From an uncultured Candidatus Saccharibacteria bacterium (GTDB lineage Bacteria > Patescibacteriota > Minisyncoccia > UBA6257 > UBA11618), in the NCBI GenBank assembly GCA_964432405.1, contig CAYSNH010000004.1:1-32000 (forward strand): 32,000 bases of DNA, written 5' to 3'. The position numbers and the translations under genes are program-made. Below, one piece after another: positions 368 through 30,893 of this stretch (positions are counted from its first letter, which is position 1; the number at the start of each line of letters is the position of its first letter). The notes beneath the pieces were generated by a model. The model worked only from the letters and a program-made list of their open reading frames with translations. It ran no database searches and was not told where the DNA came from.

Positions 368-634
368 TTACGTTAAGACGGAAAGCAGCACCATCACCCA
401 CATCATTGCGGCCACTGTTCCTAAGAACATGAATATGCTTGACTTACCTCTGTCGACCTCTCTTTGCCGCCGAACTCTACGACAGAGCTCAGCCATTCCT
501 TCTTCGTAGTTATTTTTTGGTTTGACTGGCTGGAGGGCTAAGTCTCCCAGATCGTTTGCGAGCTGGTCAAACCCTCTTCCAATAATAGCCATCACCGTCA
601 AGATGATCGCTAAAACTGTTAAAACAAAAGTCAT
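368..634 (-). CDS. Orphan small membrane protein (88 aa): hydrophobic helix at each end, Arg-rich middle
   Basis: ORF with ATG, AAGGAG 5 nt upstream, its own consensus promoter and a terminator. TM-like segments MTFVLTVLAIILTVMAIIG and IFMFLGTVAAMMWVMVLLSVL. No family recognised. Confidence 0.6.
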   Translation of the reverse strand: MTFVLTVLAIILTVMAIIGRGFDQLANDLGDLALQPVKPKNNYEEGMAELCRRVRRQREVDRGKSSIFMFLGTVAAMMWVMVLLSVLT

Positions 635-639
635 GGTCT

Positions 640-701
640 CTCCTTAAGTGAACAGTGTTAATTTACTAAGCACATTATAGCATATTAAAACCGTTTGTCA
701 A
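640..701 (-). promoter_or_regulatory. Promoter, 5' UTR and SD of the 88-aa ORF
   Basis: Minus strand: TTGACA (696-701), 16 nt, TATAAT (674-679), about 30 nt UTR, AAGGAG (640-645). The -35 overlaps back-to-back with a plus-strand TTGTCA (695-700) that fits an hpf promoter (17 nt, TACGAT 718-723). Confidence 0.55.
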
Positions 702-729
702 TGTGTGGGTGTTGTGGTACGATAATGGC

Positions 730-1050
730 GTGAGAATAATTATCAAGACAAAAGACTTGGAATTAACTCCAGTACTTAATGAGTATATTGAGACCAAGTT
801 ATGGTCTCTTAATAAGCTTGTAGATAAGTGGGATATTGAAGGAGGTGTAGAGGCTAAAGTGGAGATTGGAAAGACAACTAAACATCACAAAAAGGGTGAT
901 GTCTATCAAGCTAAAGTTAATCTTGCTCTTCCGGGCAAGCTCATTAGAGCTCAGCGAGAAGAATGGGATTTGCGCGTAGCTATTGATCGTGTAAAGAATA
1001 AATTACAGCAAGAAATTAAGAAGTATAATGACTTTAAAAACGACCACTAA
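730..1050 (+). CDS. hpf: Ribosome hibernation promoting factor / RaiA family (short form)
   Basis: IIIKTKDLELTPVLNEYIETKL...KVEIGK...YQAKVNLALPGKLIRAQREEWDLRVAIDRVKNKLQQEIKKY follows the HPF/YfiA pattern. The ORF is open from GTG 703. GTG 730 gives the canonical N-terminus and lies 6 nt after a -10-like TACGAT. Confidence 0.7.
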   Translation: MRIIIKTKDLELTPVLNEYIETKLWSLNKLVDKWDIEGGVEAKVEIGKTTKHHKKGDVYQAKVNLALPGKLIRAQREEWDLRVAIDRVKNKLQQEIKKYNDFKNDH

Positions 1051-1107
1051 TCCTCTTACTTTTTTCCTCCATCCTGCTATACTCTAAGTCTTGAAGAGTA
1101 TTATTTT

Positions 1108-3417
1108 ATGTTTAAAAAACTATTTAAAAGATTTTCTCCTGATAAGAAGTTAGGCAAGGTTGTTCAACAGATTAATAATCTAGAGAAACAGTTTGAACAA
1201 TTATCAAAAGATCAGTTGGTAGATGCAAGTGCTAAACTTCGTCAACGAGCTCAATTAGGTGAAAATTTAGATAATTTATTACCAGAAGCTTTTGCCCTGG
1301 TTAGAGAGACTGCTAAGCGGACTTTGGGTCAGCGACATTATGATGTCCAATTAATGGGCGGAATAGCTCTGCACCAAGGTAAGGTTACAGAAATGATGAC
1401 TGGTGAGGGTAAGACCCTGGCTTCTACAAGCCCTATTTATTTAAATGCTTTAACTGGTAAGGGAGTTCATGTCATTACCGTTAACGAATACTTGGCTAAG
1501 CGTGACATGGTTTGGATGGGGCAAATCTATCATCTATTAGGTTTAAAGATATCTTGTCTGGCTCACGATACCGCTTATTTATATGATCCGGAATTTAAGA
1601 TCGATACGGAAGATAAAAATCAGACTGATAAAAATAGAGATGAGACTGGTAGCTTTTTAGTTCATGAAGAATATCTTCGACCGGTTGGTCGTAAAGAGGC
1701 CTATCAAGCTGATATCGTCTATGGTACTAACCATGAATTTGGCTTTGATTATCTTAGAGATAACTTGGCCACCAGTGTAGAGGGTCAGTCTCAAGGAGAA
1801 TTTAGTTTTGCTATTATCGATGAGGTCGATAGTGTTTTGATTGATGAGGCTCGTACCCCACTAATTATTTCTGCTCCTGATGCAGAATCAAGCGCTTTTT
1901 ATAAAGTTTTTGCTCGTGTGGTAGCTCGTTTAAAACCTGAAAAAGATTATATTGTTGAGGAGAAGCTTCGAGCTGTTAATATTACCGAAGATGGCATTGA
2001 TAAGGTTGAGAAGGAGTTAAAAATTAAAGATCTCTATTCTCCAGAAAATATTCGCCTTAGTCATTACCTTCAAGAAACTCTTAAAGCCCAGGGTCTTTTT
2101 CAGCTAGATAAAGATTACGTTGTTAAAGATGGTCAGATTATTATCGTTGATCAATTTACCGGCCGCCTAATGCCAGGTCGTCGTTATTCAGCCGGTCTTC
2201 ACCAAGCCTTAGAGGCTAAGGAGGGAGTTCAGGTTCAGAATGAATCTCGTACTTACGCCCAAATTACTATTCAAAACTACTTCCGTTTGTATAAAAAAAT
2301 CTCTGGTATGACTGGTACCGCTCAAACCTCAGCTGAAGAGTTTGCCAAAGTTTACGGTCTAGATGTCATCTCTATTCCCACTAACAAACCTTCGGCTAGG
2401 AAGGATTTGCCTGATGTGATCTATAAGACTAGGAAGGCTAAATATAATGCCTTGGTTAAGGAGGTTAAAAGAGTTAATGAAACAGGCCAACCTATTTTGA
2501 TTGGTACGGTTTCTATTGAAAACAATGAAGAGGTCTCTAACTTATTAGGCAAAGCAGGTATCAAGCACGAAATGCTTAATGCCAAGAAGCATGAACAAGA
2601 AGGTAAGGTTATTGCTCAAGCTGGAAGATTGGGAGCGGTAACTGTTGCTACCAACATGGCTGGTCGTGGTGTCGACATCGTATTGGGTGGTAATCCTGTT
2701 GATGCCGAGAAGGCTGATAAGGTAAAAGAATTAGGAGGTCTTCATGTTGTTGCTACCGAGCGACACGAGGCTCGTCGTATTGATAATCAGTTACGTGGTC
2801 GTGCCGGTCGTCAGGGTGACCCAGGATCTTCTCAATTTTATCTTTCTTTAGAAGATGACATTTTACGTATCTTTGGTGGTGAGCGAGTTCAAAACATTAT
2901 GGAGTCTTTGAAGGTTCCAGAAGATATGCCAATTAGTGCCAAGATGATTAGTAAGTCTGTTGGACAGGCACAAGGCAAGATCGAGGGCATGAACTTTGAT
3001 GCTCGAAAACACTTACTCGATTACGACGACGTTCTTAACAAGCAACGAAAAGCTATTTATAAACGCCGCCAGGAGTTATTAGAAAATAAATCTCATCCAC
3101 AAATACTAAGTATGTTAGACATGCTTTGGATGAGTCATTTAGAAAATATAGAAGCTTTAATGGATGCGGTTCGTATTCGAGCTTATGGTCAACACGATCC
3201 TTTGGTAGAGTTTCGTAGAGAAGCTCATGTTATGTATCAGCAGTTGATTGCTGACTTTGAGGATTGGATTAAGGAAAATGCCAACAAGCTAGAAGAGGTT
3301 ATTGAAACAGTTCCTCTTCCAACCAAACCTTTGTCTGAGGATGATAAAAAAGTGGGTCGTAACGATCCGTGTCCTTGTGGTAGTGGTAAGAAGTATAAAA
3401 AATGCCACGGCGCTTAA
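1108..3417 (+). CDS. secA: Preprotein translocase ATPase SecA
   Basis: 769 aa with MMTGEGKTL Walker [23 protein letters not shown]-like box, [10 protein letters not shown], and C-terminal zinc motif [14 protein letters not shown]. Confidence 0.95.
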
Positions 3418-3418
3418 A

Positions 3419-4435
3419 TTACTTGATTAATAGATAATACCAGGATCTAGCTCCTCCATTTACCGCGCTGCTTTTAGTATTTCTGAGAGTAATATCTATT
3501 TTGTTAGTACTGGAGTTAGCGAAAGCTCCTACCATCAACAACCCAGACTCCAAACTTTTATTAGGAGTCAAAAAGACGCGATCACCACTTTCTATAGTTA
3601 TTCCGCTAGGAGGGTTAACAGATACAGTGCCATTGCTATCAGCTCCAATATTAGGCGGGTCAACAGTTATTTGACCATTATAAATACCACTCATTGGAGT
3701 GCCATTATCACTCACCTTAAGAGTTTTGACCTGAGCTTCTGTATCAACTTTTAAAGTGCCACTAAAAAAAGCATCTTTCCACTTATAGCCAGAACTACCA
3801 ACATCAACGTTGTTATTGGCGCCAGGTAAAAGGGTGGTGTCAAAAATAGCAGCATAAGCTTTGCTCGTTCCCAAAATTAATTTTCGTGAGACCTGCTCCT
3901 GCTCTTGTTCGCTGTTATAACTAAGGGCGAGATCTATTTCTATTAAATCTCGACCAGGGTAATCAACAAATTTGGTGAATTCTAATTTATCAACTACCAC
4001 TTTGTCGGTTGTAAGTTCGCTAGTTGTAGAATGACCAATCTCTCCTCCTCGTCCCTTGCGAACCTTTATTACACCTCCATCTAGATAGATAATAGTCGGA
4101 GTAGTTTCTGAGTTAGAAGAGTTTTCATCTTCTGGTAATTTAAGAACTAGATATTTTTGAGCTACCCCCAAGTTATTATCCACCTCATCCCAGTCTTTTC
4201 CTAAATCAGTATCTTCAATTGAATTGGTAGCAACTACATGACTAGCGTTACTAATCATGCGTTGAATTTTTTGCGTAACAAAACTTAATTGAGAGGAGAC
4301 TTCATTTTTCGAAGACTGGGTAATGGTAACTCGGGAAAAGGTGACTAATATACTAGAAAAAGCCACCGCTAAGATAGCAAATATACCTATATAAATTAGG
4401 AGCTCAACCAAAGTAAATCCAGCTCTTTTTCTCAT
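3419..4435 (-). CDS. Prepilin-type N-terminal cleavage/methylation domain protein (large type IV pilin/pseudopilin-like, 338 aa)
   Basis: N-terminus MRKRAGFTLVELLIYIGIFAILAV is a class III signal (G|FTLVE plus hydrophobic helix). TATAAT (4443-4448, minus) lies 7 nt from the ATG. The C-terminal part is not recognisable. Confidence 0.7.
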   Translation of the reverse strand: MRKRAGFTLVELLIYIGIFAILAVAFSSILVTFSRVTITQSSKNEVSSQLSFVTQKIQRMISNASHVVATNSIEDTDLGKDWDEVDNNLGVAQKYLVLKLPEDENSSNSETTPTIIYLDGGVIKVRKGRGGEIGHSTTSELTTDKVVVDKLEFTKFVDYPGRDLIEIDLALSYNSEQEQEQVSRKLILGTSKAYAAIFDTTLLPGANNNVDVGSSGYKWKDAFFSGTLKVDTEAQVKTLKVSDNGTPMSGIYNGQITVDPPNIGADSNGTVSVNPPSGITIESGDRVFLTPNKSLESGLLMVGAFANSSTNKIDITLRNTKSSAVNGGARSWYYLLIK

Positions 4436-4450
4436 GTCTTTAATTATAAA

Positions 4451-5044
4451 CTAGACCGCAGTGGGATCAAAGAACAATATCAACAGGGTCTTGATAATAG
4501 TCTTTATATCTAACCATAAAGATTGATTTTTTAGGTAGTAGCTATCAAGTTCTAATTCCTTTAGAAAGGGTAGGCTAGAGGAGCCGCTAACTTGAGAAAG
4601 ACCGGTTACCCCTGTTTTGGCTAATATTAGATGCTGATATTTTTCTGGATAATGAATAACCTCTTCTGGCTTATGAGGGCGAGGGCCAACTAGAGTTAAT
4701 TCATTTTTTAAAACATTAATTAATTGAGGGAATTCATCAATACGAAATTTCCTTAACAATCGACCGGTTTTGGTAATGCAGGGATTATTAGATATTTTAA
4801 AGAAAGGACCATCCTTTCTCTCGTTAAGGTGCATTAAGCGGGCCTTCTCTATGGCCGGAGCATTTTCGATCATCGTACGGAACTTATAGAGTTTAATAAT
4901 TTTCCCCTGACTAACTCTATCTAGGTCGATGATGGCCGCTCCTTTGCTCTCTAATTTTATAGCCAGAATAATAAAGGGTAAGAAAGGTGCTATAATAAGC
5001 AGACCTAAAATAGAACCGATAATATCTAATATTCTTTTAATCAT
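4451..5044 (-). CDS. Bacterial sugar transferase (PglC/WbaP C-terminal-domain type polyprenyl-phosphate glycosyl-1-phosphate transferase)
   Basis: 197 aa with an N-terminal re-entrant helix, then KLYKFRTM, DEFPQLINVLKNELTLVGPRP and GLSQV motifs typical of small monotopic phosphoglycosyl transferases. Confidence 0.8.
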   Translation of the reverse strand: MIKRILDIIGSILGLLIIAPFLPFIILAIKLESKGAAIIDLDRVSQGKIIKLYKFRTMIENAPAIEKARLMHLNERKDGPFFKISNNPCITKTGRLLRKFRIDEFPQLINVLKNELTLVGPRPHKPEEVIHYPEKYQHLILAKTGVTGLSQVSGSSSLPFLKELELDSYYLKNQSLWLDIKTIIKTLLILFFDPTAV

Positions 5045-6131
5045 GAAAATTGCTTTAGTCTACGATTATCTTAATCAATACGGTGGCGGGGAGAGGGTGC
5101 TAGAAATTTTTACCGCCATGTTTCCTCAAGCTCCGCTTTATACTATTTTCTACGACCCACAAAAGACTCGTCAAAGATTTAATACTAATACTATAAAGAC
5201 CAGCTTCCTAGATTACAAATTAGCCAGAGAAAATCATCGTTGGTTTATCCCCTTTATGCCACGAGCTATAGAGAGTCTAGATCTTGGCAATCAGTATGAT
5301 TTAATTATCTCTATTGGAGCTAGCTACGCTAGAGGAATAAATTATCAATCACCTACCAAACATCTTCATTATTGCTTCACTCCTATACGCTACGCCTGGG
5401 AGGATAGATATATTCCTCCTCAGATAAAAAACCTTAATCTTTTAACTCGACCTTTGAGAAATTATCTAAGACGATGGGATTTTAAAGTTGCCCAGAGACC
5501 AGATAAGATATTAACCATTTCTAATCATATCGCTATGAGAATAAGAAAATGTTATGGTCGCTCAGCTGAAATACTGCACCCACCCCTAGATACCAAAATC
5601 TTTTATCTCGATTCTAATATAAGGAAGCAGTCATATTTTCTAGCTGCTGGTCGATTGCTTCATTATAAAAAATTCGACCTAGTTATTAAGGCTTTTAATA
5701 AATTAAACCTTCCCTTAAAAATAGTTGGTCAGGGCCCAGAGATAGATCGATTAAAAAAAATGGCCACTTCTCCCAAAATAGAGTTTCTAGGCTTTGTTAA
5801 AAGCGATAATGAGATGAGATTGCTTTATTCGGGTGCTCGAGCTTTTATATTCCCTCAGGTAGAGGATTTTGGCTTGGTTGCCGTCGAAGCTCAGATCTGT
5901 GGAACGCCCGTTATTGCTTTTGCTCAAGGAGGAGCTTTAGATATTATTAATCATGGTCAAAATGGCCTTCTTTTTGCCGAACAAACCCCTGAATGCTTAG
6001 CTTACGCCATCAAAGAGTTTTGTAAGTATGATTTTGATCGTAAAGCTATTAATCAATCTGCTGAGAGATTTGCAGTAAAAAACTTCAAACTTGCCCTTGT
6101 CAAACACATAAAAAAGTTGCAAAAAAGTTGA
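5043..6131 (+). CDS. Glycosyltransferase, GT4 / Glycos_transf_1 family
   Basis: MKIALVYDYLNQYGGGERV N-terminus and C-terminal EDFGLVAVEAQICGTPVIA...GGALDII E-x7-E region. The track ORF opens at 4929, but ATG 5043 gives the canonical N-terminus. Confidence 0.8.
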   Translation: MKIALVYDYLNQYGGGERVLEIFTAMFPQAPLYTIFYDPQKTRQRFNTNTIKTSFLDYKLARENHRWFIPFMPRAIESLDLGNQYDLIISIGASYARGINYQSPTKHLHYCFTPIRYAWEDRYIPPQIKNLNLLTRPLRNYLRRWDFKVAQRPDKILTISNHIAMRIRKCYGRSAEILHPPLDTKIFYLDSNIRKQSYFLAAGRLLHYKKFDLVIKAFNKLNLPLKIVGQGPEIDRLKKMATSPKIEFLGFVKSDNEMRLLYSGARAFIFPQVEDFGLVAVEAQICGTPVIAFAQGGALDIINHGQNGLLFAEQTPECLAYAIKEFCKYDFDRKAINQSAERFAVKNFKLALVKHIKKLQKS

Positions 6132-6153
6132 TAATTTATTAATATTTCTAGCA

Positions 6154-6984
6154 ATGACACCAGAAAAGGAATTAGAGCAAGAAGACACCTCAACCACTAC
6201 TATGGTTGATGAGCCTAAACAATTAACAGCTGTTAAAGATCAGCTTTCTCCCGAAGACAAGGTCTTGGTGGAAGAAATGATCGAAGCTGGAGTTTTGTTT
6301 GGTCGCAAGCACTCTCGTACCAACCCTAAGATGAATAAATTCATCTTTAGTACTCGAAGAGGCATTGATCTTATCGACCTTATGCAGACTAAAGATCTAT
6401 TAGATGAGGCCGGTAACTTTCTTAAAGAAAAAATAGAAGAAGGTGGTACCATCTTGGTAGTTAGTACTAAGGCTAATATAAAAGACCAGGCTCTTGAGTT
6501 TATTGAAAAATACAAGTTTCCTTATGTTACCGAGCGTTGGTTGGGAGGTACTTTAACTAACTTTAAAACCATTAACAAAAGAGCTGATAGGCTTCGTCAA
6601 TTAAGAATTGATAAGGAGTCTGGAGAGTTGGATAAGTATACTAAGAAAGAGCGCCTAATGATGGATCGTCAATTAGAGAAGTTAGAGCGTCTTTTTGGCG
6701 GTATAGAAAGTATGGATAGTTTGCCAGCCGCTCTATTAGTCTTTGATGTAGATGAGCACGAGACAGCTATTAGAGAAGCTATTAGAATGAACATTCCAAT
6801 CGTTGGTTTGATTAACACTGATGGTGATCCTCGACCAATTAAATATCCGATTCCTTGTAATGATAATGCTCGTTCTAGCATTGGATGGGTTTTAGGTAAG
6901 TTGGAGGTTAAGTTAGATCAAGCTAAGCCAACTATTGCTAAAGAAGAAAAAGAAGAAGAAATTAAAAAAGAAGAAGAAAAATAA
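6154..6984 (+). CDS. rpsB: 30S ribosomal protein S2 (with N-terminal extension and Lys/Glu-rich tail)
   Basis: AGVLFGRKHSRTNPKMNKFIF...GIDLIDLMQT, ERWLGGTLTNFKT and LLVFDV...AIREA..MNIPIVGLINTD are S2 signatures. Confidence 0.9.
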   Translation: MTPEKELEQEDTSTTTMVDEPKQLTAVKDQLSPEDKVLVEEMIEAGVLFGRKHSRTNPKMNKFIFSTRRGIDLIDLMQTKDLLDEAGNFLKEKIEEGGTILVVSTKANIKDQALEFIEKYKFPYVTERWLGGTLTNFKTINKRADRLRQLRIDKESGELDKYTKKERLMMDRQLEKLERLFGGIESMDSLPAALLVFDVDEHETAIREAIRMNIPIVGLINTDGDPRPIKYPIPCNDNARSSIGWVLGKLEVKLDQAKPTIAKEEKEEEIKKEEEK

Positions 6985-6986
6985 TT

Positions 6987-7427
6987 ATGACCGAATTAGT
7001 TAAACAGCTCAGAGATGAGACAGGGGCTGGAGTTATGGATTGTAAAAAGGCTTTAGAAGAAGCTCAGGGTGATCTCGATAAAGCTAAAGAGATTATTCAA
7101 GAAAAAGGATTGATTAAAGCTACTAAGCGTGCTGGTCGTGATACTGGAGCTGGTATTCTTGAATCATACATTCACAATAATCGCGTAGGCGTGTTATTAG
7201 AGTTGCGTTGTGAAACCGATTTTGTTGCTCGCTCTGATGACTTCAAAAACCTAGCTCATAATTTGGTAATGCATATTGCCGCTTTAAACCCTAAGGATAT
7301 AGAGGCTTTATTAGAGCAACCTTTTGTGAAGGATGAGTCTCAGACTGTTGATCAATTGGTTAAGAGTGTTGCTGCGAAGACGGGTGAGAATACTCAAATT
7401 GAGAGATTCTGTCGTTACGAGATCTAA
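6987..7427 (+). CDS. tsf: Translation elongation factor Ts (short 146-aa form)
   Basis: VKQLRDETGAGVMDCKKALEEAQGDLDKAKEIIQEKG (UBA-like N-domain) and GVLLELRCETDFVARSDDF. It lies directly downstream of rpsB, as in most bacteria. Confidence 0.9.
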   Translation: MTELVKQLRDETGAGVMDCKKALEEAQGDLDKAKEIIQEKGLIKATKRAGRDTGAGILESYIHNNRVGVLLELRCETDFVARSDDFKNLAHNLVMHIAALNPKDIEALLEQPFVKDESQTVDQLVKSVAAKTGENTQIERFCRYEI

Positions 7428-8508: not shown

Positions 8509-8582
8509 TGACTTAATTATATCAAGTATGACAGTCTTTAACCAACAGAACTTTCAAACATTCTTCATCAAGGAGATGCATC

Positions 8583-8981
8583 ATGATTCTTTATCGTAAT
8601 GGTAGTACTTGTCCGAAAAACGAAATTCCTCCTTCTGCTTGGGCCTCAAGTTCATTAGCTCTGGATCATTTTATTGATCGTTGTGATGACAATCTAATTA
8701 TGCGAGGGGATCGGATCTTTATCATCACCTTGCCCTATCCTTCATTGGATAAGATTGGTCAGTATTTTCATATTCGCCGGAGGATAGTGCCCGAAGAGGC
8801 AATCCTTCCTTTCGGCTTTGATTTTGACAGAGACTGGTGGAGCTTTAATTTCTGCTACGCTGGTTCATTCAAAGTATTAGCCGATCTCGATGAGCTTAAA
8901 ATCGGCTTGGATCAAATTCAGAATTTAGACAATCATTATCTAGACGAGGATCTTTGGTTGACCTCATCAGAAAACACTTAG
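8583..8981 (+). CDS. Orphan small protein (132 aa), no recognisable family
   Basis: AAGGAG (8570-8575) lies 7 nt before ATG 8583, and a terminator follows the stop directly. The promoter is unclear (TTGACT 8508-8513 but no well-spaced -10). Confidence 0.55.
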   Translation: MILYRNGSTCPKNEIPPSAWASSSLALDHFIDRCDDNLIMRGDRIFIITLPYPSLDKIGQYFHIRRRIVPEEAILPFGFDFDRDWWSFNFCYAGSFKVLADLDELKIGLDQIQNLDNHYLDEDLWLTSSENT

Positions 8982-9008
8982 CGCGCCTTAAGAAGGGGCG
9001 CTTTTTTA
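8980..9008 (+). terminator. Rho-independent terminator
   Basis: AGCGCGCC (8980-8987), loop TTAAGAA, GGGGCGCT (8995-9002), then TTTTTT. Confidence 0.7.
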
Positions 9009-14728: not shown

Positions 14729-14756
14729 TTGACTTTTTTAATAAAAGTAGTATAAT
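14729..14756 (+). promoter_or_regulatory. Promoter of the 84-aa zinc-ribbon ORF
   Basis: TTGACT (14729-14734), 16 nt, TATAAT (14751-14756). About 40 nt UTR with AAAGGAG (14789-14795) 6 nt before ATG 14802. Confidence 0.6.
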
Positions 14757-14801
14757 ATAGGCAGTTCTTCAGTTTTTGTAACCTGCATAAAGGAGTAATG
14801 C

Positions 14802-15056
14802 ATGTTTTGTCAATATTGTGATGTTGATTTGAACGAAGAAAACTCTTCGGAGGTGACAGTGATGTATAATCTCTGTTCCGAATGTTTTCATAATTCTGAC
14901 ACCTTGATTTATTTTAGTCATGGTGAAACGGCTGATCAGTCTCAGTCATCAGGAGAGAATCAAGACTTTCCTCTTTTGAAACCAAGAAAAGAAGAAGCGG
15001 TTGAGGAGTTTGATTCTTTTGATGATTGGAATTTGAAAACACAAAAGCCTCGTTGA
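14802..15056 (+). CDS. Orphan small acidic protein with N-terminal CxxC-x18-CxxC zinc-ribbon-like motif (84 aa)
   Basis: MFCQYCDVDL...NLCSECFH, followed by an acidic, low-complexity tail (about 18 D/E vs 6 K/R). Has its own promoter, SD and terminator. Confidence 0.6.
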   Translation: MFCQYCDVDLNEENSSEVTVMYNLCSECFHNSDTLIYFSHGETADQSQSSGENQDFPLLKPRKEEAVEEFDSFDDWNLKTQKPR

Positions 15057-15060: not shown

Positions 15061-15089
15061 GGGCCCACGCTAGTGTGGGCCCTTTTTTT
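15061..15089 (+). terminator. Rho-independent terminator
   Basis: GGGCCCAC (15061-15068), loop GCTAGT, GTGGGCCC (15075-15082), then TTTTTTT. Confidence 0.8.
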
Positions 15090-16003: not shown

Positions 16004-16093
16004 TTGACTTTTTTTTATATTAATATATAATAGGGCAATCGTACCTGAGGATGGGTACGGAGTACGTTAACTTTTTTAGAAGGAGTGCATGCT
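16004..16093 (+). promoter_or_regulatory. Promoter and structured 5' UTR of the GC-rich 174-aa ORF
   Basis: TTGACT (16004-16009), 16 nt, TATAAT (16026-16031). Perfect hairpin CGTACC (16040-16045) / GGTACG (16054-16059) near the predicted 5' end. AAGGAG ends at 16085, 8 nt before ATG 16094. Confidence 0.6.
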
Positions 16094-16618
16094 ATGCACG
16101 AAGGCGAACAAGTTGGTCAAGGCGGAGCAACGGCAACTATTGATCGTTCAGTCCCGGCGGAAAAGAGCGGCGACGGTTTCAAGGCTGTCATTGCGGATTT
16201 GATCACTACTCCTGACAGAGTGGCGCTGATCATCTCGACCAGGCTCACCGGCCAGGAAATGCCCGAGGAGACGAGCGAACTTTCCGCTTCGGAAGTCCAG
16301 TTGGTCAAGTATCTTGATCAGCTCGTCCAATGTGGCAACGAAAAGGCGTTGTCGGAGATACAGGTCGTTGTGAAAAGCGAGGCTTTTCTTCATCAAGTGG
16401 ATGATGCTGTGAAGCTCATCCAAGGCGACCAGGAAAGCGTCGCAATTGAAGAGAGGGCTCACGAATCCTCCGAGAAGCTGAAGAGCTTCATTATTGAGGG
16501 AGCGATGAAGGCCGCAACTCCGGCTGAGAGCTGGGAAGTTGAATCGACGCAAGAAGCCAAGACGATTACTGCGATAGCAAGATTGCTGCAGCATCTCGTG
16601 TCCTTGCGCTGCGCTTGA
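16094..16618 (+). CDS. Orphan acidic protein (174 aa) in a GC-rich island, no recognisable family
   Basis: The ORF is open from GTG 16085, and ATG 16094 has the best SD spacing. Two 60-nt lines counted by hand give 55% and 57% G+C, against 40-43% in the flanking genes. About 29 D/E vs 16 K/R; looks helical. Strong terminator downstream. Confidence 0.6.
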   Translation: MHEGEQVGQGGATATIDRSVPAEKSGDGFKAVIADLITTPDRVALIISTRLTGQEMPEETSELSASEVQLVKYLDQLVQCGNEKALSEIQVVVKSEAFLHQVDDAVKLIQGDQESVAIEERAHESSEKLKSFIIEGAMKAATPAESWEVESTQEAKTITAIARLLQHLVSLRCA

Positions 16619-16658
16619 TCCTTCTGATCGACGACCTCTTTTTTGAGATGTCGTGCCG

Positions 16659-16691
16659 CCCCCTGTAGCTTAGGCTGCAGGGGGTTTTTTA
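16659..16691 (+). terminator. Rho-independent terminator
   Basis: CCCCCTGTAGC (16659-16669), loop TTAG, GCTGCAGGGGG (16674-16684), then TTTTTT. Confidence 0.8.
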
Positions 16692-22770: not shown

Positions 22771-22833
22771 CTCCTTAGTTGTGTGATTTTAAATTCCAGG
22801 CCATATCATATAATAATTTAATAAAATTGTCAA
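22771..22833 (-). promoter_or_regulatory. Promoter, UTR and SD of the 77-aa ORF
   Basis: Minus strand: TTGACA (22828-22833), 17 nt, TATGAT (22805-22810), about 28 nt UTR, AAGGAG (22771-22776). Confidence 0.6.
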
Positions 22834-22874
22834 TTCTGGAAAAAAACCAGCAAAAGAACTATAATCCTTATACA

Positions 22875-24251
22875 ATGTCAAAATTTTATATCACCACCTC
22901 AATCGCTTATGTTAACGGAGCGCCTCATATAGGTTTTGCTTTAGAGTCCGTCCAGGCTGATGCTATCGCTCGTTATCATCGTCAACAAGATGACCAAGTC
23001 TTCTTTTTAACTGGTACTGATGAACATGGTGCTAAAATATCTCGTACAGCCGAGGCATTAAAGATAACACCTGAGGAGCTAACCGATACGAACGCTGCTA
23101 AGTTTAAGGCTCTGAAAGAGTTACTAAACCTTTCCTGGGATGATTTTATTAGAACTAGCGATAAAGAAAAACATTGGCCAAATGTTGTTAATCTTTGGCA
23201 CAAGTTAGAAGCTAGGGGTGATATTTATAAAAAGGTATACAAAGGTCTTTATTGTGTAGGTCACGAAGCTTTTGTAACGGAGAAGGATCTGGTTGATGGG
23301 CAGTGTCGAGATCATCAGAGTAAACCAGAGATTATTGAAGAAGAAAACTACTTCTTCCGTCTCTCTAAGTACGCTGATCAGATTAAAAGTCTGATAGAGA
23401 GCGAAGAGTTAAAAATCTATCCTCAGAGCAGAGCTAATGAGATTATCAGCTTTATTAATCAAGGCATTGAGGATATTAGCTTTTCCCGACCCCGAAAAGA
23501 TCTAAGTTGGGGCATTCCCGTTCCTGGTGATGAAACGCAGACTATCTATGTTTGGTGTGATGCTCTTTCCAATTATCTTTCTCAGCCTGATCAGTGGCCA
23601 GCCGAGCTGCAAATCATTGGAAAAGATATTTTGCGCTTTCACGCTCTATTTTGGCCTGCCATGTTACTCTCCGCCAAACTACCTTTACCCAAAGCCCTTT
23701 TTGTTCACGGTCACATTACGGTTGATAATCAGAAGATGTCTAAAAGCTTAGGGAATGTTATCGATCCGGTAGAGTTAGTGAACAGGTATGGTGTTGATGC
23801 TGTCCGTTACTACCTCCTACGAGAAATTCCTCCTTTTAATGATGGGGATTTTAGTTATAAGAAGTTTGAGGAGCGCTATAACGGTGATCTAGCTAATGGC
23901 TTAGGTAACTTTGTTTCTCGAGTTTTTGCCTTGCAGAAAAGATTAGAGGTTTCGGCTGCTGATAAAAGCTCTGATGATGTTGGTGACTTTATCAAACGAG
24001 TACGGGAACAGATGGGCTCTAGAATGGAGCAGTATCGTCTTAACGAGGCCCTAGAAACTCTCTGGGAGTTGATTAGTCGCGGTGATAAGTATATAAATGA
24101 AAAAAAGCCTTGGGAGACGGGTGATAAGAATGCGGTAGCTAATGCTCGGGAGTTGGTTGATCAGGTTGCAGAATTATTAAAGCCCTTCCTTCCAGAAACA
24201 GCAGAAAAAATAATTAAAGGAGAGCCAGGAACTTTATTTCCTCGGTTGTAA
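22875..24251 (+). CDS. metG: Methionine--tRNA ligase (short form without C-terminal tRNA-binding domain)
   Basis: FYITTSIAYVNGAPHIGFALE (HIGH region) and KMSKSLGNVIDP (KMSKS). The track ORF opens at 22779. ATG 22875 gives the canonical N-terminus and lies 9 nt after TATAAT (22860-22865). Confidence 0.9.
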   Translation: MSKFYITTSIAYVNGAPHIGFALESVQADAIARYHRQQDDQVFFLTGTDEHGAKISRTAEALKITPEELTDTNAAKFKALKELLNLSWDDFIRTSDKEKHWPNVVNLWHKLEARGDIYKKVYKGLYCVGHEAFVTEKDLVDGQCRDHQSKPEIIEEENYFFRLSKYADQIKSLIESEELKIYPQSRANEIISFINQGIEDISFSRPRKDLSWGIPVPGDETQTIYVWCDALSNYLSQPDQWPAELQIIGKDILRFHALFWPAMLLSAKLPLPKALFVHGHITVDNQKMSKSLGNVIDPVELVNRYGVDAVRYYLLREIPPFNDGDFSYKKFEERYNGDLANGLGNFVSRVFALQKRLEVSAADKSSDDVGDFIKRVREQMGSRMEQYRLNEALETLWELISRGDKYINEKKPWETGDKNAVANARELVDQVAELLKPFLPETAEKIIKGEPGTLFPRL

Positions 24252-24257: not shown

Positions 24258-25064
24258 ATGACTTTATTTGATGCCCATACTCATATTCATTTTCCCGCCT
24301 ATGATCAAGATCGAGAGGAGGTGATTAAGCGTGCTCAAGCGGCTGAGGTTAAGATGATTACCGTCGGCACCAATCTAGAGACCTCTCAGGGCGCTATCGC
24401 TTTAGCTAATCAGTATCCAGATGATATCTGGGCTACCGCTGGCTTTCACCCTGCTCATGCTGGTGAAAATTGGCATCACGATAAGAAGGAGCAAAAGAAA
24501 TCTCAACAGGAAAGCTTTGATAAAGAAGCTTTGCTAGCACTAGCTAAAGATGAGCGAGTGGTAGCGATTGGGGAGTGTGGTTTGGATTATTTTCGTGGTC
24601 GAGAAAGTGAAGCAGCTCAAAAAGATATTTTTCAACAACAGCAGGTGATTGCTCAATCACTTAGCAAGCCTCTTATGATTCACTGTCGCCCTACCTCCAA
24701 CACTGATGACGCTTATGAGGACCTAGTTGAGTTATTAAATCCTAATACTCCCACTATTATACATTTCTTTGTTGGTTCAGCTGATGTGGCTAAGAAGTTG
24801 TTAGCTAAAAAATGTTACTTTACTTTTGGCGGGGTAATTACATTCGTCAGTGACTATAACGAAGTTATCAAGGCGATTCCTTTATCTAATATAATGCTGG
24901 AGACCGACGCCCCTTATGTCACCCCTCATCCTCATCGAGGAAAAAGAAATGAGTCGTCTTATGTAGTTGAGGTGGCTAAAAAAATAGCCGAAATCAAAGA
25001 TATTGATTATGATGAAGTAGTGGCGCAGACTACTGCTAACGCAAAGAAAGTTTTTAATATTTAA
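24258..25064 (+). CDS. tatD: TatD family metal-dependent hydrolase/DNase
   Basis: LFDAHTHIHF (HxH), AIGECGLDY, MIHCR and LETDAPYV are TatD motifs. Confidence 0.85.
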   Translation: MTLFDAHTHIHFPAYDQDREEVIKRAQAAEVKMITVGTNLETSQGAIALANQYPDDIWATAGFHPAHAGENWHHDKKEQKKSQQESFDKEALLALAKDERVVAIGECGLDYFRGRESEAAQKDIFQQQQVIAQSLSKPLMIHCRPTSNTDDAYEDLVELLNPNTPTIIHFFVGSADVAKKLLAKKCYFTFGGVITFVSDYNEVIKAIPLSNIMLETDAPYVTPHPHRGKRNESSYVVEVAKKIAEIKDIDYDEVVAQTTANAKKVFNI

Positions 25065-27373: not shown

Positions 27374-27387
27374 CAAAAGGGTTAATA

Positions 27388-28443
27388 ATGGTTAAAATAT
27401 GGCCGATGAAAAATATAAAGGTTTTCGCGGCCATTTTAATTTTAAGCAATATGTTTATGGGCTTAACAGCTCATGCTTATCATGAATATTATTACCGACC
27501 CGAATGGAATCCGGTAACTTATAATTCTGCTCCAAGATGGAATGCTGAGACCGTTAAATATGCTCACGTTGGTCAAAATATGACATTTACCGTTTCTGCT
27601 AATGATGTTGACGGTGATCGTCTATCTTATTACGGTATGTTCTTACCAATAGGAGCTCGTTTTGACAGTCATAGTAGAACTTTTACTTGGACCCCTAGAA
27701 AGACTGGAACTTATGATCTACAATTCCGAGTTTATGATGGTGGTTATAGTCACTCTGATCTTTATGTTACCGTTGTTGTTGGTAATAGATTGCCAGAGTT
27801 TAACAATATAACTCCAGTTGATTATGACTATCCTACACATAATCCAACCAATCCTTCTAGTACTTATTTAAACTTTGTTAACTTTAATCCAGTTAGTACC
27901 GCTACTGAGAACCAGCTTTACACTTACACGGTTCAGACGAATAGTAGCCATAAGGTAATATACTCTTTACCAAGAGCTCCTCAGGGAATGACCATTAACC
28001 CAGACCTAGGTATTATTATCTGGCTACCAAATCAGAATCAGGCTCAGCTAGCTCCTTATTTGGTAACGGTTAAAGCTACCAATGGTTATCAGGACATTCA
28101 GCTCAACTACAATCTAACTGTTGGTGAGGGTGGTACGATCACTCCTCAGCCAAAACCAGATCCTACCCCTCAGCCTACCCCTGGTCCTGTAGTACCAGAT
28201 GAGCCAGCTGATGATAAGGATGATCAAGACGAAGTTGAAACTGATGAAGATAAGACAGGTTTTCTAGCTAGCATATTTATTGCTGGTATAGACTTCCTCT
28301 TTAGTCCTTGGTTCTTGCTCTTCTTAATCTTTTTACTTCTAATACTTTTATTTCTTTGCAAAAGAAAAGGTAAAGGAGAAAAGCAATTAATTGCTTTCAT
28401 GGAAGAGAGAGATAAAATGGAAGATAAAGAGTTAGAGGAATAA
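27388..28443 (+). CDS. Surface protein: signal peptide, two cadherin/Ig-like domains, Pro/Thr-rich acidic stalk, C-terminal TM anchor
   Basis: Signal-like MKNIKVFAAILILSNMFMGLTAHA. FTVSANDVDGDRLSYY...FTWTPRKTGTYDLQFRVYDG and YTYTVQT...MTINPDLGIIIWLP...YLVTVKATNG resemble dystroglycan-type cadherin-like/putative Ig domains. Stalk TPQPKPDPTPQPTPGPVVPDEPADDKDDQDE, then TM FLLFLIFLLLILLFL. The start is uncertain (TTG 27370, ATG 27388 or ATG 27406). Confidence 0.6.
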   Translation: MVKIWPMKNIKVFAAILILSNMFMGLTAHAYHEYYYRPEWNPVTYNSAPRWNAETVKYAHVGQNMTFTVSANDVDGDRLSYYGMFLPIGARFDSHSRTFTWTPRKTGTYDLQFRVYDGGYSHSDLYVTVVVGNRLPEFNNITPVDYDYPTHNPTNPSSTYLNFVNFNPVSTATENQLYTYTVQTNSSHKVIYSLPRAPQGMTINPDLGIIIWLPNQNQAQLAPYLVTVKATNGYQDIQLNYNLTVGEGGTITPQPKPDPTPQPTPGPVVPDEPADDKDDQDEVETDEDKTGFLASIFIAGIDFLFSPWFLLFLIFLLLILLFLCKRKGKGEKQLIAFMEERDKMEDKELEE

Positions 28444-28444
28444 T

Positions 28445-28475
28445 AAAAGAAGCGGCTCAGCCGCTTCTTTTATTA
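28445..28475. terminator. Bidirectional terminator shared by convergent genes
   Basis: AAAAGAAGCGGC / GCCGCTTCTTTT palindrome around a TCA loop, flanked by an A-run and a T-run. Confidence 0.8.
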
Positions 28476-28492
28476 TCTTTTATAAACTAAAA

Positions 28493-28804
28493 TTAAAAGT
28501 CTCCAAAGTCTCCAAAGTCTCCAAAGTCTCCAGAATCTCCAAAGCCTCCAGAACCTCCTTCTCTACTGAAGCCCTCATTATTACATTTGTGAGCTCTAAA
28601 ATGTAAATGAGCGCCATGAGCTGGTCCACAATGAAAGAGTCCGCCACCAGACGACCCTCCACATCCTTGGGAGTTTCCATCTGGAAGAGGAGTACCCCCA
28701 GCCTCTACATGAGTTGATCTAGAAGGTGCTCCAAGCCAAATTAATAATACGGCGATTGCTATAACAACTAACCAAACAAGACTTTTGTTTTTCTTTTTTG
28801 TCAT
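28493..28804 (-). CDS. Small secreted or membrane-anchored Gly/His/Cys-rich protein with C-terminal (GDF)n repeat (103 aa)
   Basis: MTKKKNKSLVWLVVIAIAVLLIWLG signal/anchor, then GCGGSSGGGLFHCGPAHGAHLHFRAHKC, ending GGSGGFGDSGDFGDFGDFGDF-stop. TATAAT (28813-28818, minus) lies 8 nt from the ATG. It is 47 nt downstream of htrA on the same strand, with no terminator between them. Confidence 0.6.
   Translation of the reverse strand: MTKKKNKSLVWLVVIAIAVLLIWLGAPSRSTHVEAGGTPLPDGNSQGCGGSSGGGLFHCGPAHGAHLHFRAHKCNNEGFSREGGSGGFGDSGDFGDFGDFGDF
28496..28558 (-). repeat. 9-bp tandem repeat x7 (4 perfect and 3 degenerate copies) encoding the G-D/G-F/S triplets
   Basis: Plus strand: AAAGTCTCC x4 (28496-28531), then AGAATCTCC, AAAGCCTCC, AGAACCTCC. 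Confidence 0.9.
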
Positions 28805-28851
28805 ATCTATTAATTATAATAAATTAAATTATCAATTAGGTGTGTATAACT

Positions 28852-29901
28852 TTATTTTCTTTCTGCTAACATAGCTTTCTTCTCAAACTCTCTGCTACCA
28901 CGTCTTACCTTTAAGAGAACGTAGTCACCAACACCTTTTTCTTCTAAGAAGTCTTGAATAGTTCTTTCTTTAGTTACCTTCTCACCATTAAACTCTAATA
29001 CAATATCTTTTTCCTTGAGACCGGCTTTGGCAGCTGGACTGCTAGGAATAATAGCTGGTTGCTTAGAGCTATGCCCTAATACCAAGGCACCATAATCAAC
29101 TGGTAATTTCATCTTAGCTTGAAGATTTTCATCAACCATTACATAACGAAGACCTAATAATGGTCGTTTTATTCTTCCAAATTTATTGAGATCACTTAGG
29201 TCTCTTTTTGCGGCGTTGATAGGAATGGCAAAACTAAGGTTTTGTGCTCCAAAGACTATAGCAGTATTAATACCAATAACTTGCCCCTTTGCGTTAATAA
29301 GTGGTCCACCTGAGTTACCAGGATTAACAGCTGCATCGGTTTGGATTAAACCTCTCAATTCTTGCATAGGAGTATTAGGGGCTACCGCAGCTGCGATCGA
29401 ACGAGAGAGTCCAGAAACAATACCTGAGGAAACAGTATTTTTAAATAAGCCTAATGCTGTACCAATAGCTAATACTGGTTGACCAAGGGCTATGGCGTCC
29501 GAGTCTCCCAAGCCAATTACAGGCAAACTGCGACCGGTAATTTTTAAAATCGCTACATCCTCAATTGGATCACGAGCTAAAATAGTGGCTTTATATTTCT
29601 TGTTGTCGTTAGTAACGACGGTATAGTCTGATTTAGCATCCGCCACCACATGCTTGTTAGTTAAAATAATACCCTTAGAACTGACAATGAACCCAGAGCC
29701 GCTACCAACCTTAATCATACCGTGGGCATCAGTCATTTGTTCGAGTTGTTTTTTAGGGTTTAAAAAGGGAAAGAGGGGAAGCAGTTCACGAGGAATTTCT
29801 TTTTCCACGTTCTCCAAACTTTTGGAAATAACAATGCTAACCATGGAGGGCATATTTTTTTGAATAACCTTTTCCCAACTTACCTGTGCCATCTCTAACA
29901 T
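28852..29901 (-). CDS. htrA: HtrA/DegP-family serine protease (S1C) with one PDZ domain
   Basis: GSGFIVS..GIILTNKHVV (His), DVAILKI (Asp), TDAAVNPGNSGGPLIN (Ser), and a C-terminal PDZ-like PAAKAGLKEKDIVLEFNGEKV. No obvious signal peptide. Confidence 0.85.
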   Translation of the reverse strand: MLEMAQVSWEKVIQKNMPSMVSIVISKSLENVEKEIPRELLPLFPFLNPKKQLEQMTDAHGMIKVGSGSGFIVSSKGIILTNKHVVADAKSDYTVVTNDNKKYKATILARDPIEDVAILKITGRSLPVIGLGDSDAIALGQPVLAIGTALGLFKNTVSSGIVSGLSRSIAAAVAPNTPMQELRGLIQTDAAVNPGNSGGPLINAKGQVIGINTAIVFGAQNLSFAIPINAAKRDLSDLNKFGRIKRPLLGLRYVMVDENLQAKMKLPVDYGALVLGHSSKQPAIIPSSPAAKAGLKEKDIVLEFNGEKVTKERTIQDFLEEKGVGDYVLLKVRRGSREFEKKAMLAERK

Positions 29902-29936
29902 CTTACCAAATATTTATAATAAATTTTATCAACAGG

Positions 29937-30009
29937 TTGACTTTATTTAAAAAGCTGATATTATCATTTAATATCGTTCTTTGCACAATTGTAGAAAAGG
30001 AGTTTCAAG
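29937..30009 (+). promoter_or_regulatory. Promoter, UTR and SD of the 101-aa ORF
   Basis: TTGACT (29937-29942), 16 nt, TATTAT (29959-29964), about 35 nt UTR, AAAGGAG ending at 30002, 7 nt before TTG 30010. Confidence 0.55.
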
Positions 30010-30315
30010 TTGGAAACTGGAGTTAAGGAAGGGCTTGATCGTTGCTATGTGATTCTCAGACGTCCCGAGCGTCAGGATACGGCTATCGTATTGTGTCCGG
30101 GGATGGAAATGCACATTTTCGATCAAGACGAGGAGTCTTTTGACAGATTGTTTAACCAGATTGAGGAGGCTACCGGATGCAAGTTTGTTCCAAGAGGTGA
30201 TTTAACCTCAGTCGTTTTATATGCAAGAGAAAAGCTGGAAGACGACTTGCAAGAAAAAGTGGAATTGCTTGAAGACGCTACTTATGCGTCGGCTGAGACC
30301 GTTGTACTTGGTTAG
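30010..30315 (+). CDS. Orphan small acidic protein (101 aa), no recognisable family
   Basis: TTG start with a well-spaced SD. One 60-nt line counted at 53% G+C. About 23 D/E vs 11 K/R. Terminator downstream. Confidence 0.55.
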   Translation: METGVKEGLDRCYVILRRPERQDTAIVLCPGMEMHIFDQDEESFDRLFNQIEEATGCKFVPRGDLTSVVLYAREKLEDDLQEKVELLEDATYASAETVVLG

Positions 30316-30334
30316 GGTCTGACAAGCAACACCC

Positions 30335-30367
30335 CCCGCTTAAGCTGTATAGCTGAGCGGGTTTTTT
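30335..30367 (+). terminator. Rho-independent terminator
   Basis: CCCGCT (30335-30340) ... AGCGGG (30356-30361), with inner AGCT/AGCT pairing, then TTTTTT. Confidence 0.75.
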
Positions 30368-30377
30368 ATTACACCCC

Positions 30378-30444
30378 TTTACAAAAATAAACTTTTGTTG
30401 TATAATGGCAGATAGTTACTTCACATTTCGAAAAGGAGTTAGAA
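30378..30444 (+). promoter_or_regulatory. Promoter, UTR and SD of the 130-aa ORF
   Basis: TTTACA (30378-30383), 17 nt, TATAAT (30401-30406) with extended -10 TGt. About 30 nt UTR, with AAAGGAG 7 nt before ATG 30445. Confidence 0.65.
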
Positions 30445-30837
30445 ATGACTACGTTTTCTGTTACCTTTCCTTCCGCAGTGATGGTTCCTGGTTATGGCGT
30501 TATTGATGACGTCGAGCCGGTACGAGGCGCTCATGATGCGTGCATCAAGCCAGTGTTGCGGCAAGGAGAAAAGAATCGTGTCCTCAGCTTAGACGAGCTG
30601 AAGATGAGAGCTATCGAAGAAAGAGGTGACTTGGGGATCAGAGATCTCAATTTCATCATGCAGACCAGCGTCCTACCTGAGGATGGTCTGGTGTACATCT
30701 TTCCGGGAACTATCTTGGAAAGAGATGGTGAGGTCTTCGTGCCTTATACTTACTTCGACAGCGTAGGTCTGACAAGAGGTTTTCGCAATCTCAAGGAAGG
30801 CTTCACTCAGCACGACAGGTTTTTCTGTCTTTGTTAA
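30445..30837 (+). CDS. Orphan small protein (130 aa), no recognisable family
   Basis: ATG with SD, own promoter and terminator. One 60-nt line counted at 55% G+C. Ends in ...RFFCLC. Confidence 0.6.
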   Translation: MTTFSVTFPSAVMVPGYGVIDDVEPVRGAHDACIKPVLRQGEKNRVLSLDELKMRAIEERGDLGIRDLNFIMQTSVLPEDGLVYIFPGTILERDGEVFVPYTYFDSVGLTRGFRNLKEGFTQHDRFFCLC

Positions 30838-30860
30838 AGAGATGGAGAGCTGAAAACACA

Positions 30861-30893
30861 AAACCCTATCGGTTTTTCCGATAGGGTTTTTTT
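30861..30893. terminator. Rho-independent terminator (12-bp stem), possibly bidirectional
   Basis: AAACCCTATCGG (30861-30872), loop TTTTT, CCGATAGGGTTT (30878-30889), then a T-run. It ends 7 nt from the 3' end of the convergent tRNA-Ala. Confidence 0.85.

Follow-up and report, generated by a model that had tools for sequence, protein, structure and literature searches.

Seven leadered, Shine-Dalgarno-led small-protein genes as a probable separate class in a Shine-Dalgarno-poor genome of an uncultured Saccharibacteria bacterium

The first 32,000 nucleotides of contig CAYSNH010000004.1 (NCBI GenBank assembly GCA_964432405.1), hereafter the window, derive from an uncultured Candidatus Saccharibacteria bacterium and have a G+C content of 39.2%. 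They encode SecA, S2, EF-Ts, L19, RecO, MetS, LeuS, a class II aminoacyl-tRNA synthetase, HPF, HtrA, glycosyltransferases, DUF4012, a pilin-like protein and eight tRNAs, the housekeeping set of a reduced genome. The population is marine, as the window sequence is matched exactly in Tara mesopelagic samples of 0.1-0.22 um and in a contig of 300,815 bp, and the annotations of its relatives read 'Candidatus Saccharibacteria' or 'Patescibacteria group bacterium'. Between these host genes lie seven small open reading frames (ORFs) with expression signals of their own. We label the seven cassettes C1 to C7 in window order (Table 1) and refer to the loci and proteins of relatives by L and P numbers, respectively.

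The cassettes differ from their surroundings primarily in the signals for translation initiation. In all of them a perfect AAGGAG lies 5-8 nt upstream of the start codon, and a Shine-Dalgarno (SD) sequence thus precedes seven of seven cassettes vs one of 48 host genes (p=4e-8, Fisher's exact test), a statistic drawn from just 52 kb of one genome, that is, the window and contig extensions of about 9-10 kb per side. Inside the window none of the 28 host genes has an SD sequence; the flanking extensions add one SD-led gene among 20. Taken together, 8 of 55 genes are SD-led, all but one of them small monocistronic orphan ORFs, and no SD sequence precedes operon-internal genes. AAGGAG occurs 48 times in the window, with 41 copies inside genes, and the seven intergenic copies are the SD sequences of the cassettes, which are conserved in cassette orthologs. 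SD-led ORFs of at least 150 aa number 0-2 per locus in all related loci examined. The sole SD-led gene outside the cassettes, hyp191 (L035 3724-4299), is situated between mreB and mreC, some 5.2 kb to the left of where the window begins. It encodes 191 aa, has a native composition and the SD sequence AAAAGGAGG, and shows no Pfam match.

The host genes, in turn, appear to be initiated differently. A leaderless-type layout, with 7-12 nt between the end of a -10-like hexamer and the ATG, is found at no fewer than nine of them, namely the pilin-like gene, VTT, Prx, L19, RecO, MetS (start 22875), hyp103, BadF and aaRS2, and PilM and PilT just beyond the window have the same layout. In the cassettes, by comparison, the -10 box is located 38-62 nt before the start codon. 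The MetS ORF call from TTG 22779 is too long; its likely start is ATG 22875, with a TATAAT ending 9 nt upstream, so that MetS would share a divergent promoter region (22779-22875) with C5.

A consensus scan predicts sigma70-like sites matching 10-12 of 12 positions at six of the seven cassettes, C2 being the unclear case. The window's single 12/12 promoter-like site and four of its six 11/12 sites are located upstream of cassettes. The promoters of C3 (14715-14739) and C4 (15990-16014) have in common the sequence GGCTTTA-N7-TTGACTTTTTT, detected in a repeat search, which could represent a joint upstream element or a regulator site. A GC-rich stem followed by a T-tract is found downstream of all seven ORFs. 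The five top-ranked terminator-like hairpins of two overlapping scans follow C4, C3, C1, C2 and C7, that of C5 is also listed, and that of C6 was identified by eye. The 5′ untranslated regions (UTRs) of six of the seven cassettes are unstructured. An earlier reading of the window, the original prediction, had proposed the seven ORFs, their perfect SD sequences, near-consensus promoters at all but C2, a terminator after each, and host gene starts that nearly all lack an SD sequence and in nine or more cases look leaderless. Every one of these elements was recovered. Its notion of separate monocistronic units, whose expression signals differ from those of housekeeping genes, is likewise supported by the predicted promoters, SD sequences and terminators that bracket the ORFs. 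Its statement that each cassette sits alone in its gap needs correction, as C6 and C7 are adjacent.

Table 1. Predicted parts of the seven cassettes in window coordinates, and copies of the C7 paralog C7b in the coordinates of the respective loci.
Feature	Extent (strand)	Promoter	SD	ORF	Product	ORF GC	Terminator or hairpin
C1	318..701 (-)	TTGACA-16-TATAAT with TG, 701-674	AAGGAG, 645-640	634-368 (-)	88 aa, two hydrophobic helices	0.46	342-318
C2	8570..9008 (+)	not identifiable	AAGGAG, 8570-8575	8583-8981 (+)	132 aa, charge -9	0.41	8983-9001 plus T-run
C3	14729..15090 (+)	TTGACT-16-TATAAT, 14729-14756	14790-14795	14802-15056 (+)	84 aa, CxxC...CxxC then acidic tail, charge -12	0.365	15061-15082
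C4	16004..16693 (+)	TTGACT-16-TATAAT, 16004-16031	16080-16085	16094-16618 (+)	174 aa, charge -13	0.53	16658-16685
C4 5′-UTR hairpin	~16040-16059						CGTACC-TGAGGATG-GGTACG, conserved
C5	22522..22833 (-)	TTGACA-17-TATGAT, 22833-22805	22776-22771	22762-22529 (-)	77 aa, charge +3	0.43	22541-22522
C6	29937..30367 (+)	TTGACT-16-TATTAT with TG, 29937-29964	29997-30002	30010-30315 (+)	TTG start, 101 aa, charge -12	0.45	~30334-30367
C7	30378..30897 (+)	TTTACA-17-TATAAT, 30378-30406	30433-30438	30445-30837 (+)	130 aa	0.48	30860-30890, bidirectional
C7b	L030 10394-10621; L032 1011-1277; L038 6001-6420; L039 2548-2967	TTTACA-17-TATAAT	AAAGGAG		139 aa		present

The explanation that we favor, with a probability of roughly 70%, is that C1 to C7 form a class of small-protein genes that are leadered, SD-dependent, fast-evolving, lineage-restricted and inherited vertically, in a genome that is otherwise leaderless and SD-poor. 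According to this model, a sigma70-type promoter would fire a transcript with a 5′ UTR of 30-60 nt, the consensus AAGGAG would pair with the anti-SD sequence of the 16S rRNA and recruit the 30S subunit, and one protein of 77-174 aa would be made per unit. An intrinsic terminator would insulate each unit from the neighboring genes, while the first genes of operons would start leaderless and internal genes would be translated without an SD sequence. The cassettes are conspicuous because translation of the other genes appears to start differently, and the different start modes would thus define two gene classes in one cell. SD sequence and leader are likely to give the cassettes separately controllable and probably high expression. 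The anti-SD motif is reported to be rarely lost and, among members of the candidate phyla radiation (CPR), mainly missing in a Parcubacteria subgroup (PMC9297842), a rarity that fits a functional SD sequence here.

Several lines of evidence bear on the question of how the cassettes came to be there. RecO-anchored scans yielded the sister species L008-L012, in which RecO is 90-93% identical, and L007, a near-identical strain; L036-L039 are contigs carrying C2 and C7 homologs. C2, C3 and C5 are syntenic in L008-L011, C1-C4 in L036/L037 and C6/C7 in L038/L039, always in identical gaps and on the identical strand, and an orthologous series of C4 is present in every close relative. The check for empty sites between the same host genes, proposed along with the original prediction, revealed none for C1-C7 in the close relatives covering those sites; only the paralog C7b is polymorphic. 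Host gene order from EF-Ts to LeuS is conserved even in L002, which belongs to another genus (RecO 58% identical). Its gaps matching C2, C4 and C5 hold SD-led small ORFs, and such ORFs also occupy corresponding gaps of L003 and L006. In the C5 slot of L002, the unit has at its end a short ORF, LNQFIIIRETDDGCVTLKR, which is clearly a homolog of the C-terminus of C5, LDQFIIIEESPSGRVTLIRK. The positional analogue of C4 in L002 (5282-5614, 110 aa, GC 0.60) has a G+C content at third codon positions (GC3) of 0.77 and no detectable sequence similarity to C4. It lies about 110 nt downstream of a tRNA 3′ end and has a 5′ hairpin, GGGCTTCC-GCAA-TGGAAGCCC, followed by GAAAGGAG.

Base composition sets apart only some of the cassettes. 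Host genes have a mean GC of 0.386 (range 0.34-0.44). Against a null of size-matched in-frame segments of host genes, the GC of C4 (z=6.7), C7 (z=3.9), C1 (z=2.4) and marginally C6 (z=2.4) is atypical, and the same four deviate in GC3 (0.59 in C4, 0.52 in C1) and codon usage. C2, C3 and C5 fall within the host range, C3 even below the host mean. The predicted GC contrast therefore stands for the former group and has to be withdrawn for the latter. In C4 orthologs, GC3 is 0.51-0.62 vs 0.27-0.35 in the adjoining RecO of the same genus. Synonymous sites are saturated between these orthologs, yet the high GC3 is kept, indicating that it is not a decaying foreign signature and that some process keeps it up, whether selection on the mRNA, recurrent exchange of alleles or, at a locus prone to recombination, biased gene conversion.

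The original prediction had taken the cassettes for acquired modules. In its most developed form, this explanation holds that they are horizontally acquired single-gene modules, moron-like or from a high-GC, SD-using host, which keep the signals and composition of their donor. The atypical composition of C4, C7, C1 and marginally C6, the GC3 of 0.83-0.90 in distant members of the C7 family, which is the profile of a gene from a genome of about 65% GC, the presence or absence of C7b among strains, the different genomic position of a C7-family gene in L043 (see below) and the orphan status of the proteins are all in its favor. Nonetheless, we regard acquisition as unlikely. C1-C7 are syntenic in the sister lineages without empty sites, the C5 slot is occupied by a homolog in L002, and the high GC3 of C4 is stable. 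The window proteins include no integrase, transposase or other mobile-element genes, and flanking repeats are missing. Among 2.9 million viral contigs we found no relatives of the five cassettes scanned (family alignments of C7 and C4 as well as C2, C6 and C1), a plasmid collection lying outside this search; a viral-contig match of L040 was trivial, comprising 12 residues. PHROGs and PADLOC yielded nothing apart from a weak match of C1 to a holin. An exhaustive phmmer search for C7 returned only seven proteins, none of them shown to come from a high-GC donor. Moreover, the promoters and terminators are AT-rich sequences of the local type and the most conserved parts of the units, and C2, C3 and C5 are compositionally native. 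The conserved positions thus argue that the seven genes are inherited and not recently acquired. Acquisition survives only as an ancient capture that may account for the GC-rich subset. C7b alone behaves as truly accessory.

The inherited cassettes evolve more rapidly than the genes around them, and at unequal rates. Compared with L010, they rank with the least conserved proteins; C2, C3 and C5 are 65%, 69% and 73% identical, respectively, and the host genes 71-93%, C2 and C3 being the lowest of all. Orthologs of C2 in the same slot share 65-94% identity with a ratio of nonsynonymous to synonymous substitution rates (dN/dS) of 0.09. C3 orthologs are 65-94% identical (dN/dS ~0.2) and C5 orthologs 70-73% (dN/dS 0.18-0.21). 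The C1 ortholog in L037 is 77% identical, with 22:14 nonsynonymous to synonymous differences (Nd:Sd) and proportions of differing sites of 0.11 (pN) vs 0.23 (pS). C4 is far more variable. Between species whose RecO is 93% identical, the C4 proteins are about 25-30% identical. C4 is intact in seven lineages (155-196 aa) and has acquired many indels, all of them in frame; its MHE(Q/G)E N-terminus and a number of motifs persist in a nucleotide sequence that is close to unalignable. The signals around this ORF are almost invariant in alignments, including the -35 and -10 boxes, the 5′-UTR hairpin, the SD sequence and the terminator, whose stem shows one compensatory C:G to T:A change. Accordingly, the DNA of the window and of L009 is 88% identical in the C4 promoter and UTR, 49-63% in the ORF and 90% at the RecO start past the terminator. 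The window and L009 also differ in a mosaic fashion around C3. Between 14500 and 15300 they are 90-98% identical from the end of bPH2 through C3 into the start of BadF and 71-79% identical over the rest of BadF, a recombination-like pattern that points to exchange between lineages.

At moderate divergence the dN/dS of C4 is 0.33-0.84, and three close pairs have Nd:Sd ratios of 8:1, 15:1 and 16:2. The first of these is the comparison of the window with L007, in which RecO and DUF11 have no substitutions and BadF has five, all synonymous. C6 differs from its L038 ortholog by five nonsynonymous and no synonymous substitutions, HtrA by 0:3 and LeuS by 2:6. Pooled, C4 and C6 have 13N:1S vs 2N:14S in the flanks (p=2e-5); as these counts are small and the close pairs not independent, we read them as a sign of diversifying selection or of strongly relaxed constraint in proteins that are retained. 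A nonsynonymous excess of this kind fits a conflict interface. Diversity-generating retroelements were considered as a source of the variation and rejected, since the window has no template-like direct repeat and the substitutions in C4 and C6 are of mixed types and not A-specific. The window proteins include no reverse transcriptase domain, the genome outside the window not being covered.

Might the cassettes be ordinary small housekeeping or regulatory proteins, with SD sequence and leader normal for the monocistronic leadered genes of this clade and fast evolution due to small size or disorder? The retention of the cassettes in every close relative examined and the clear purifying selection and native composition of C2, C3 and C5 agree with this explanation, as do the SD sequence of hyp191 within the mreBCD cluster and the fact that VTT, the pilin-like protein and BadF of the host set diverge almost as fast. 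Nevertheless, we think it rather improbable. None of the proteins has a Pfam or NCBIfam match, and the homologs of C2 and C4 are confined to the genus. The changes in C4 and C6 are nearly all nonsynonymous and those in the flanks nearly all synonymous, C7b undergoes tandem duplication and loss, and the GC3 of C4, C7 and C1 deviates persistently. Homology to conserved housekeeping proteins, which would have spoken for ordinary genes, was not found in the Pfam, NCBIfam or PDB searches.

Assigning functions by homology was unproductive throughout. Searches of Pfam, PHROGs, PADLOC and NCBIfam with the seven proteins, hyp103 and hyp111 gave nothing above noise, the sole PHROGs match being that of C1 to a holin (E=0.0027), which counts for little because C1 has hydrophobic helices. 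Positional analogues in relatives had no Pfam matches. PDB sequence searches with profiles of C4, C7 and C2 and with single sequences of C6 and C3 gave no significant matches, and homologs of C4 and C2 beyond the genus are absent among 5.8 billion proteins. No pairwise similarity exists among C1-C7, either in protein or in DNA. The original prediction was therefore right in recognizing none of the proteins and no likeness among them, and less fortunate in speaking of a family. Its suggestion of a Foldseek comparison was followed with an AlphaFold2 model from the C7 family alignment (pLDDT 59), which had no PDB match below E=0.25; the model from the C2 alignment (pLDDT 32) was unusable. With models of such low confidence, fold comparison is uninformative. 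Recomputed net charges of the 84-, 174- and 101-aa proteins (C3, C4 and C6) are -12, -13 and -12, respectively, in agreement with the strong acidity noted before. Homology to anti-restriction or defence proteins was looked for and not found, PADLOC and PDB giving no significant match; the acidic charge alone fits. The roles as effectors, immunity proteins or anti-defence-like proteins on which the original prediction had speculated are neither borne out nor contradicted. Apart from the hydrophobic helices of C1, the seven proteins have no secretion signal, and neither a linked secretion or toxin system nor a partner gene was found.

Nonetheless, the ORFs give every appearance of encoding proteins. 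Each spans the space from SD sequence to terminator, the reading frames are retained in sister-lineage orthologs, and GC is concentrated at codon position 3. Rfam searches of the window at gathering and permissive thresholds (E up to 5) returned tRNAs only and nothing credible under the cassettes, and those of the loci with distant C7 homologs returned tRNAs and noise only. Because Rfam is empty, frames are kept, dN/dS is purifying and C4 is intact in seven lineages, we take all seven ORFs to be protein-coding; the evidence is thinnest for C6, where it consists of ORF conservation. That the units are mainly non-coding or dual-function structured small RNAs with incidental ORFs is very hard to believe, although a GC-rich segment of a few hundred bases, set in an AT-rich genome and enclosed by a strong promoter and terminator, is what such RNAs usually look like and C4 has long ORFs on both strands and an invariant 5′ hairpin, given the lack of Rfam matches, the perfect SD sequence 5-8 nt before every ORF, the filled space up to the terminator, dN/dS values well below 1 in C2, C3 and C5, the excess of pS over pN in C1, the in-frame indels and kept protein motifs of C4 in near unalignable DNA, the concentration of GC at codon position 3 and the unstructured 5′ UTRs of six of the seven cassettes. 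The purely non-coding version is rejected by in-frame conservation, dN/dS, the ORFs reaching from SD sequence to terminator and the empty Rfam searches.

Thus, we return to a vertically inherited, SD-led class of small-protein genes. We infer that those of its members that are acidic and evolve fast operate at an interface to the host bacterium or phage and not in housekeeping, and C4, C6 and perhaps C1 and C7 are the candidate interface proteins toward host cell or phage. A number of points weigh against this explanation. C2 has no recognizable promoter, and the promoters, UTR lengths and leaderless status are consensus matches only. The designation of the cassettes as SD-dependent presumes pairing with the anti-SD sequence, which we take to occur, as the 16S 3′ end lies outside the window. 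The SD statistic comes, as mentioned, from a short stretch of one genome. C2, C3 and C5 are compositionally ordinary and the dN/dS of C2 is host-like, which makes the class heterogeneous. The ratio in C4 and C6, based on few and non-independent substitutions, could also be produced by relaxed constraint or recombinational import. Function could not be assigned, and the structural models are poor. Finally, hypervariation is also seen in the leaderless gene hyp103 and is hence not confined to the SD-led class.

The case of hyp103 (28493-28804, minus strand, 103 aa) deserves a description of its own. Its N-terminal signal or transmembrane anchor, MTKKKNKSLVWLVVIAIAVLLIWL, is identical in L038, and the Gly/Cys-rich C-terminal ~75 residues, which end in (GDF)4, are replaced outright. 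DNA identity to L038 is 42-46% in the variable part (~28500-28740) and 100% in the flanks. A hypervariable secreted or anchored peptide thus appears to exist that is not SD-led.

C7 offers a view of how such units behave over shorter and longer distances. Its tandem paralog C7b, 55% identical, follows directly after the C7 terminator in some strains and is absent in the window strain, where it would follow 30897; two contigs end inside C7b. As C7b has a promoter, SD sequence and terminator of its own (Table 1), it is the unit from promoter to terminator that is duplicated or lost. C7 also belongs to a wider uncharacterised family with the distant members P0068, P0070, P0071 and P0073. The last three are 30-33% identical to C7 and preceded by apparently strong promoters, long leaders and SD sequences, and the high GC3 of the distant family genes mentioned above occurs within loci of 0.37-0.52 GC. 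A match of C7 to P0069, a protein of 1990 aa, was set aside because it consists of a short motif of ~30 residues repeated many times, and we give it no functional weight. C7 adjoins a cluster of five tRNAs. Two of these, a tRNA-Ser pair (anticodons CGA and TGA, 30975-31057 and 31348-31433), contain a 65-nt repeat that is 91% identical. The phosphoribosyltransferase/ComF-like gene at 31455-32000 is 236 aa long in public gene calls and would overrun the right window edge.

A similar arrangement is seen in L043, a 163-kb contig of distant Patescibacteria (GCA_964649075.1, contig CAZYOM010000001.1). Two of its genes are orphans (185-697 and 6001-6558) with a GC of 0.62 and 0.65 and a GC3 of 0.70 and 0.87, respectively. 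The first encodes a 170-aa membrane protein and the second, located just upstream of MurB, a C7-family member. Both have a TTGACA promoter, a 5′ hairpin in the leader, a long GGAGG-type SD sequence and a terminator. On the same contig MurB, HPF and SecA lack an SD sequence, SecA looks leaderless, and an SD-like AGGAG precedes just one of the nine genes other than the two orphans, MazG, at a distance of 14 nt. The dichotomy of SD-led and SD-less genes is therefore not peculiar to the genus of the window. One might go further and suppose that SD-poor, leaderless Patescibacteria in general possess a dedicated, translationally separate class of monocistronic, strongly promoted, SD-led, often GC3-rich and fast-diversifying orphans that serves as a repertoire for interaction with partners or phage. 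We consider this tentative extension rather unlikely. In a still bolder variant, the foreign-style signals and GC-rich codons might be adapted to production of the proteins in a high-GC host that uses SD sequences.

Saccharibacteria, like other CPR bacteria, are obligate episymbionts, most of whose lineage-specific genes are unannotated 'hypotheticals', and to our knowledge almost nothing is established about the molecules that these episymbionts use on their hosts. What is new here is a class of fast-evolving orphan genes in Patescibacteria defined by initiation mode, a modestly novel pattern; literature searches gave no description of such a gene class in Saccharibacteria or CPR. If true, the combination of leader, consensus SD sequence and terminator in an SD-less genome would be a sequence-only finder of effector or interaction candidates for thousands of uncultured genomes. 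It would likewise constitute a natural two-channel translation system testable in cultivable oral Saccharibacteria. The high GC3 of some cassettes in AT-rich genomes is a compositional puzzle, for which selection on the mRNA, biased gene conversion and ancient high-GC capture are possible solutions. Even if the cassettes are not a separate class, what look like 'foreign islands' here are native genes, and labeling them horizontal gene transfer would be wrong.

Among known systems, leadered and leaderless gene classes within one genome are outlined in reports on Mycobacterium, Deinococcus and Actinobacteria (PMC3898074, PMC4633059, PMC3160421), and genome classes of this kind in the account of GeneMarkS-2 (PMC6028130). 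The window resembles these leaderless-rich bacteria in having two initiation modes per genome, with leaderless first genes whose -10 box is near the ATG and leadered genes with an SD sequence. In those organisms most genes are SD-led, operon-internal and housekeeping genes among them; here, in contrast, they are a small minority and mostly small monocistronic orphans. In Bacteroidetes such as Flavobacterium, SD use is near zero, the anti-SD sequence is retained and a few genes, for instance rpsU, keep a consensus SD sequence. There the retained SD sequence serves ribosomal protein autoregulation in a distinct 16S and ribosome context, whereas in the window it marks fast-evolving orphans. Like prophage morons, the cassettes are one-gene units that lie between unrelated genes, bring a promoter and terminator of their own and often have an atypical composition; unlike morons, they have no prophage or mobile context, are syntenic across the genus and, in the five cassettes scanned, lack viral homologs. 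In being small and strongly acidic, C3, C4 and C6 recall the DNA mimics Ocr and ArdA, from which they differ in being chromosomal, vertically inherited and without a sequence match in Pfam, PHROGs, PADLOC or PDB. Finally, orphan small-protein genes and the effector and immunity genes of symbionts share with the cassettes their short length, lineage restriction, lack of domains, elevated dN/dS and variation in copy number. The cassettes differ from these genes in having no secretion signal except for the hydrophobic helices of C1, no link to a secretion or toxin system and no partner gene, and are at most putative effectors.

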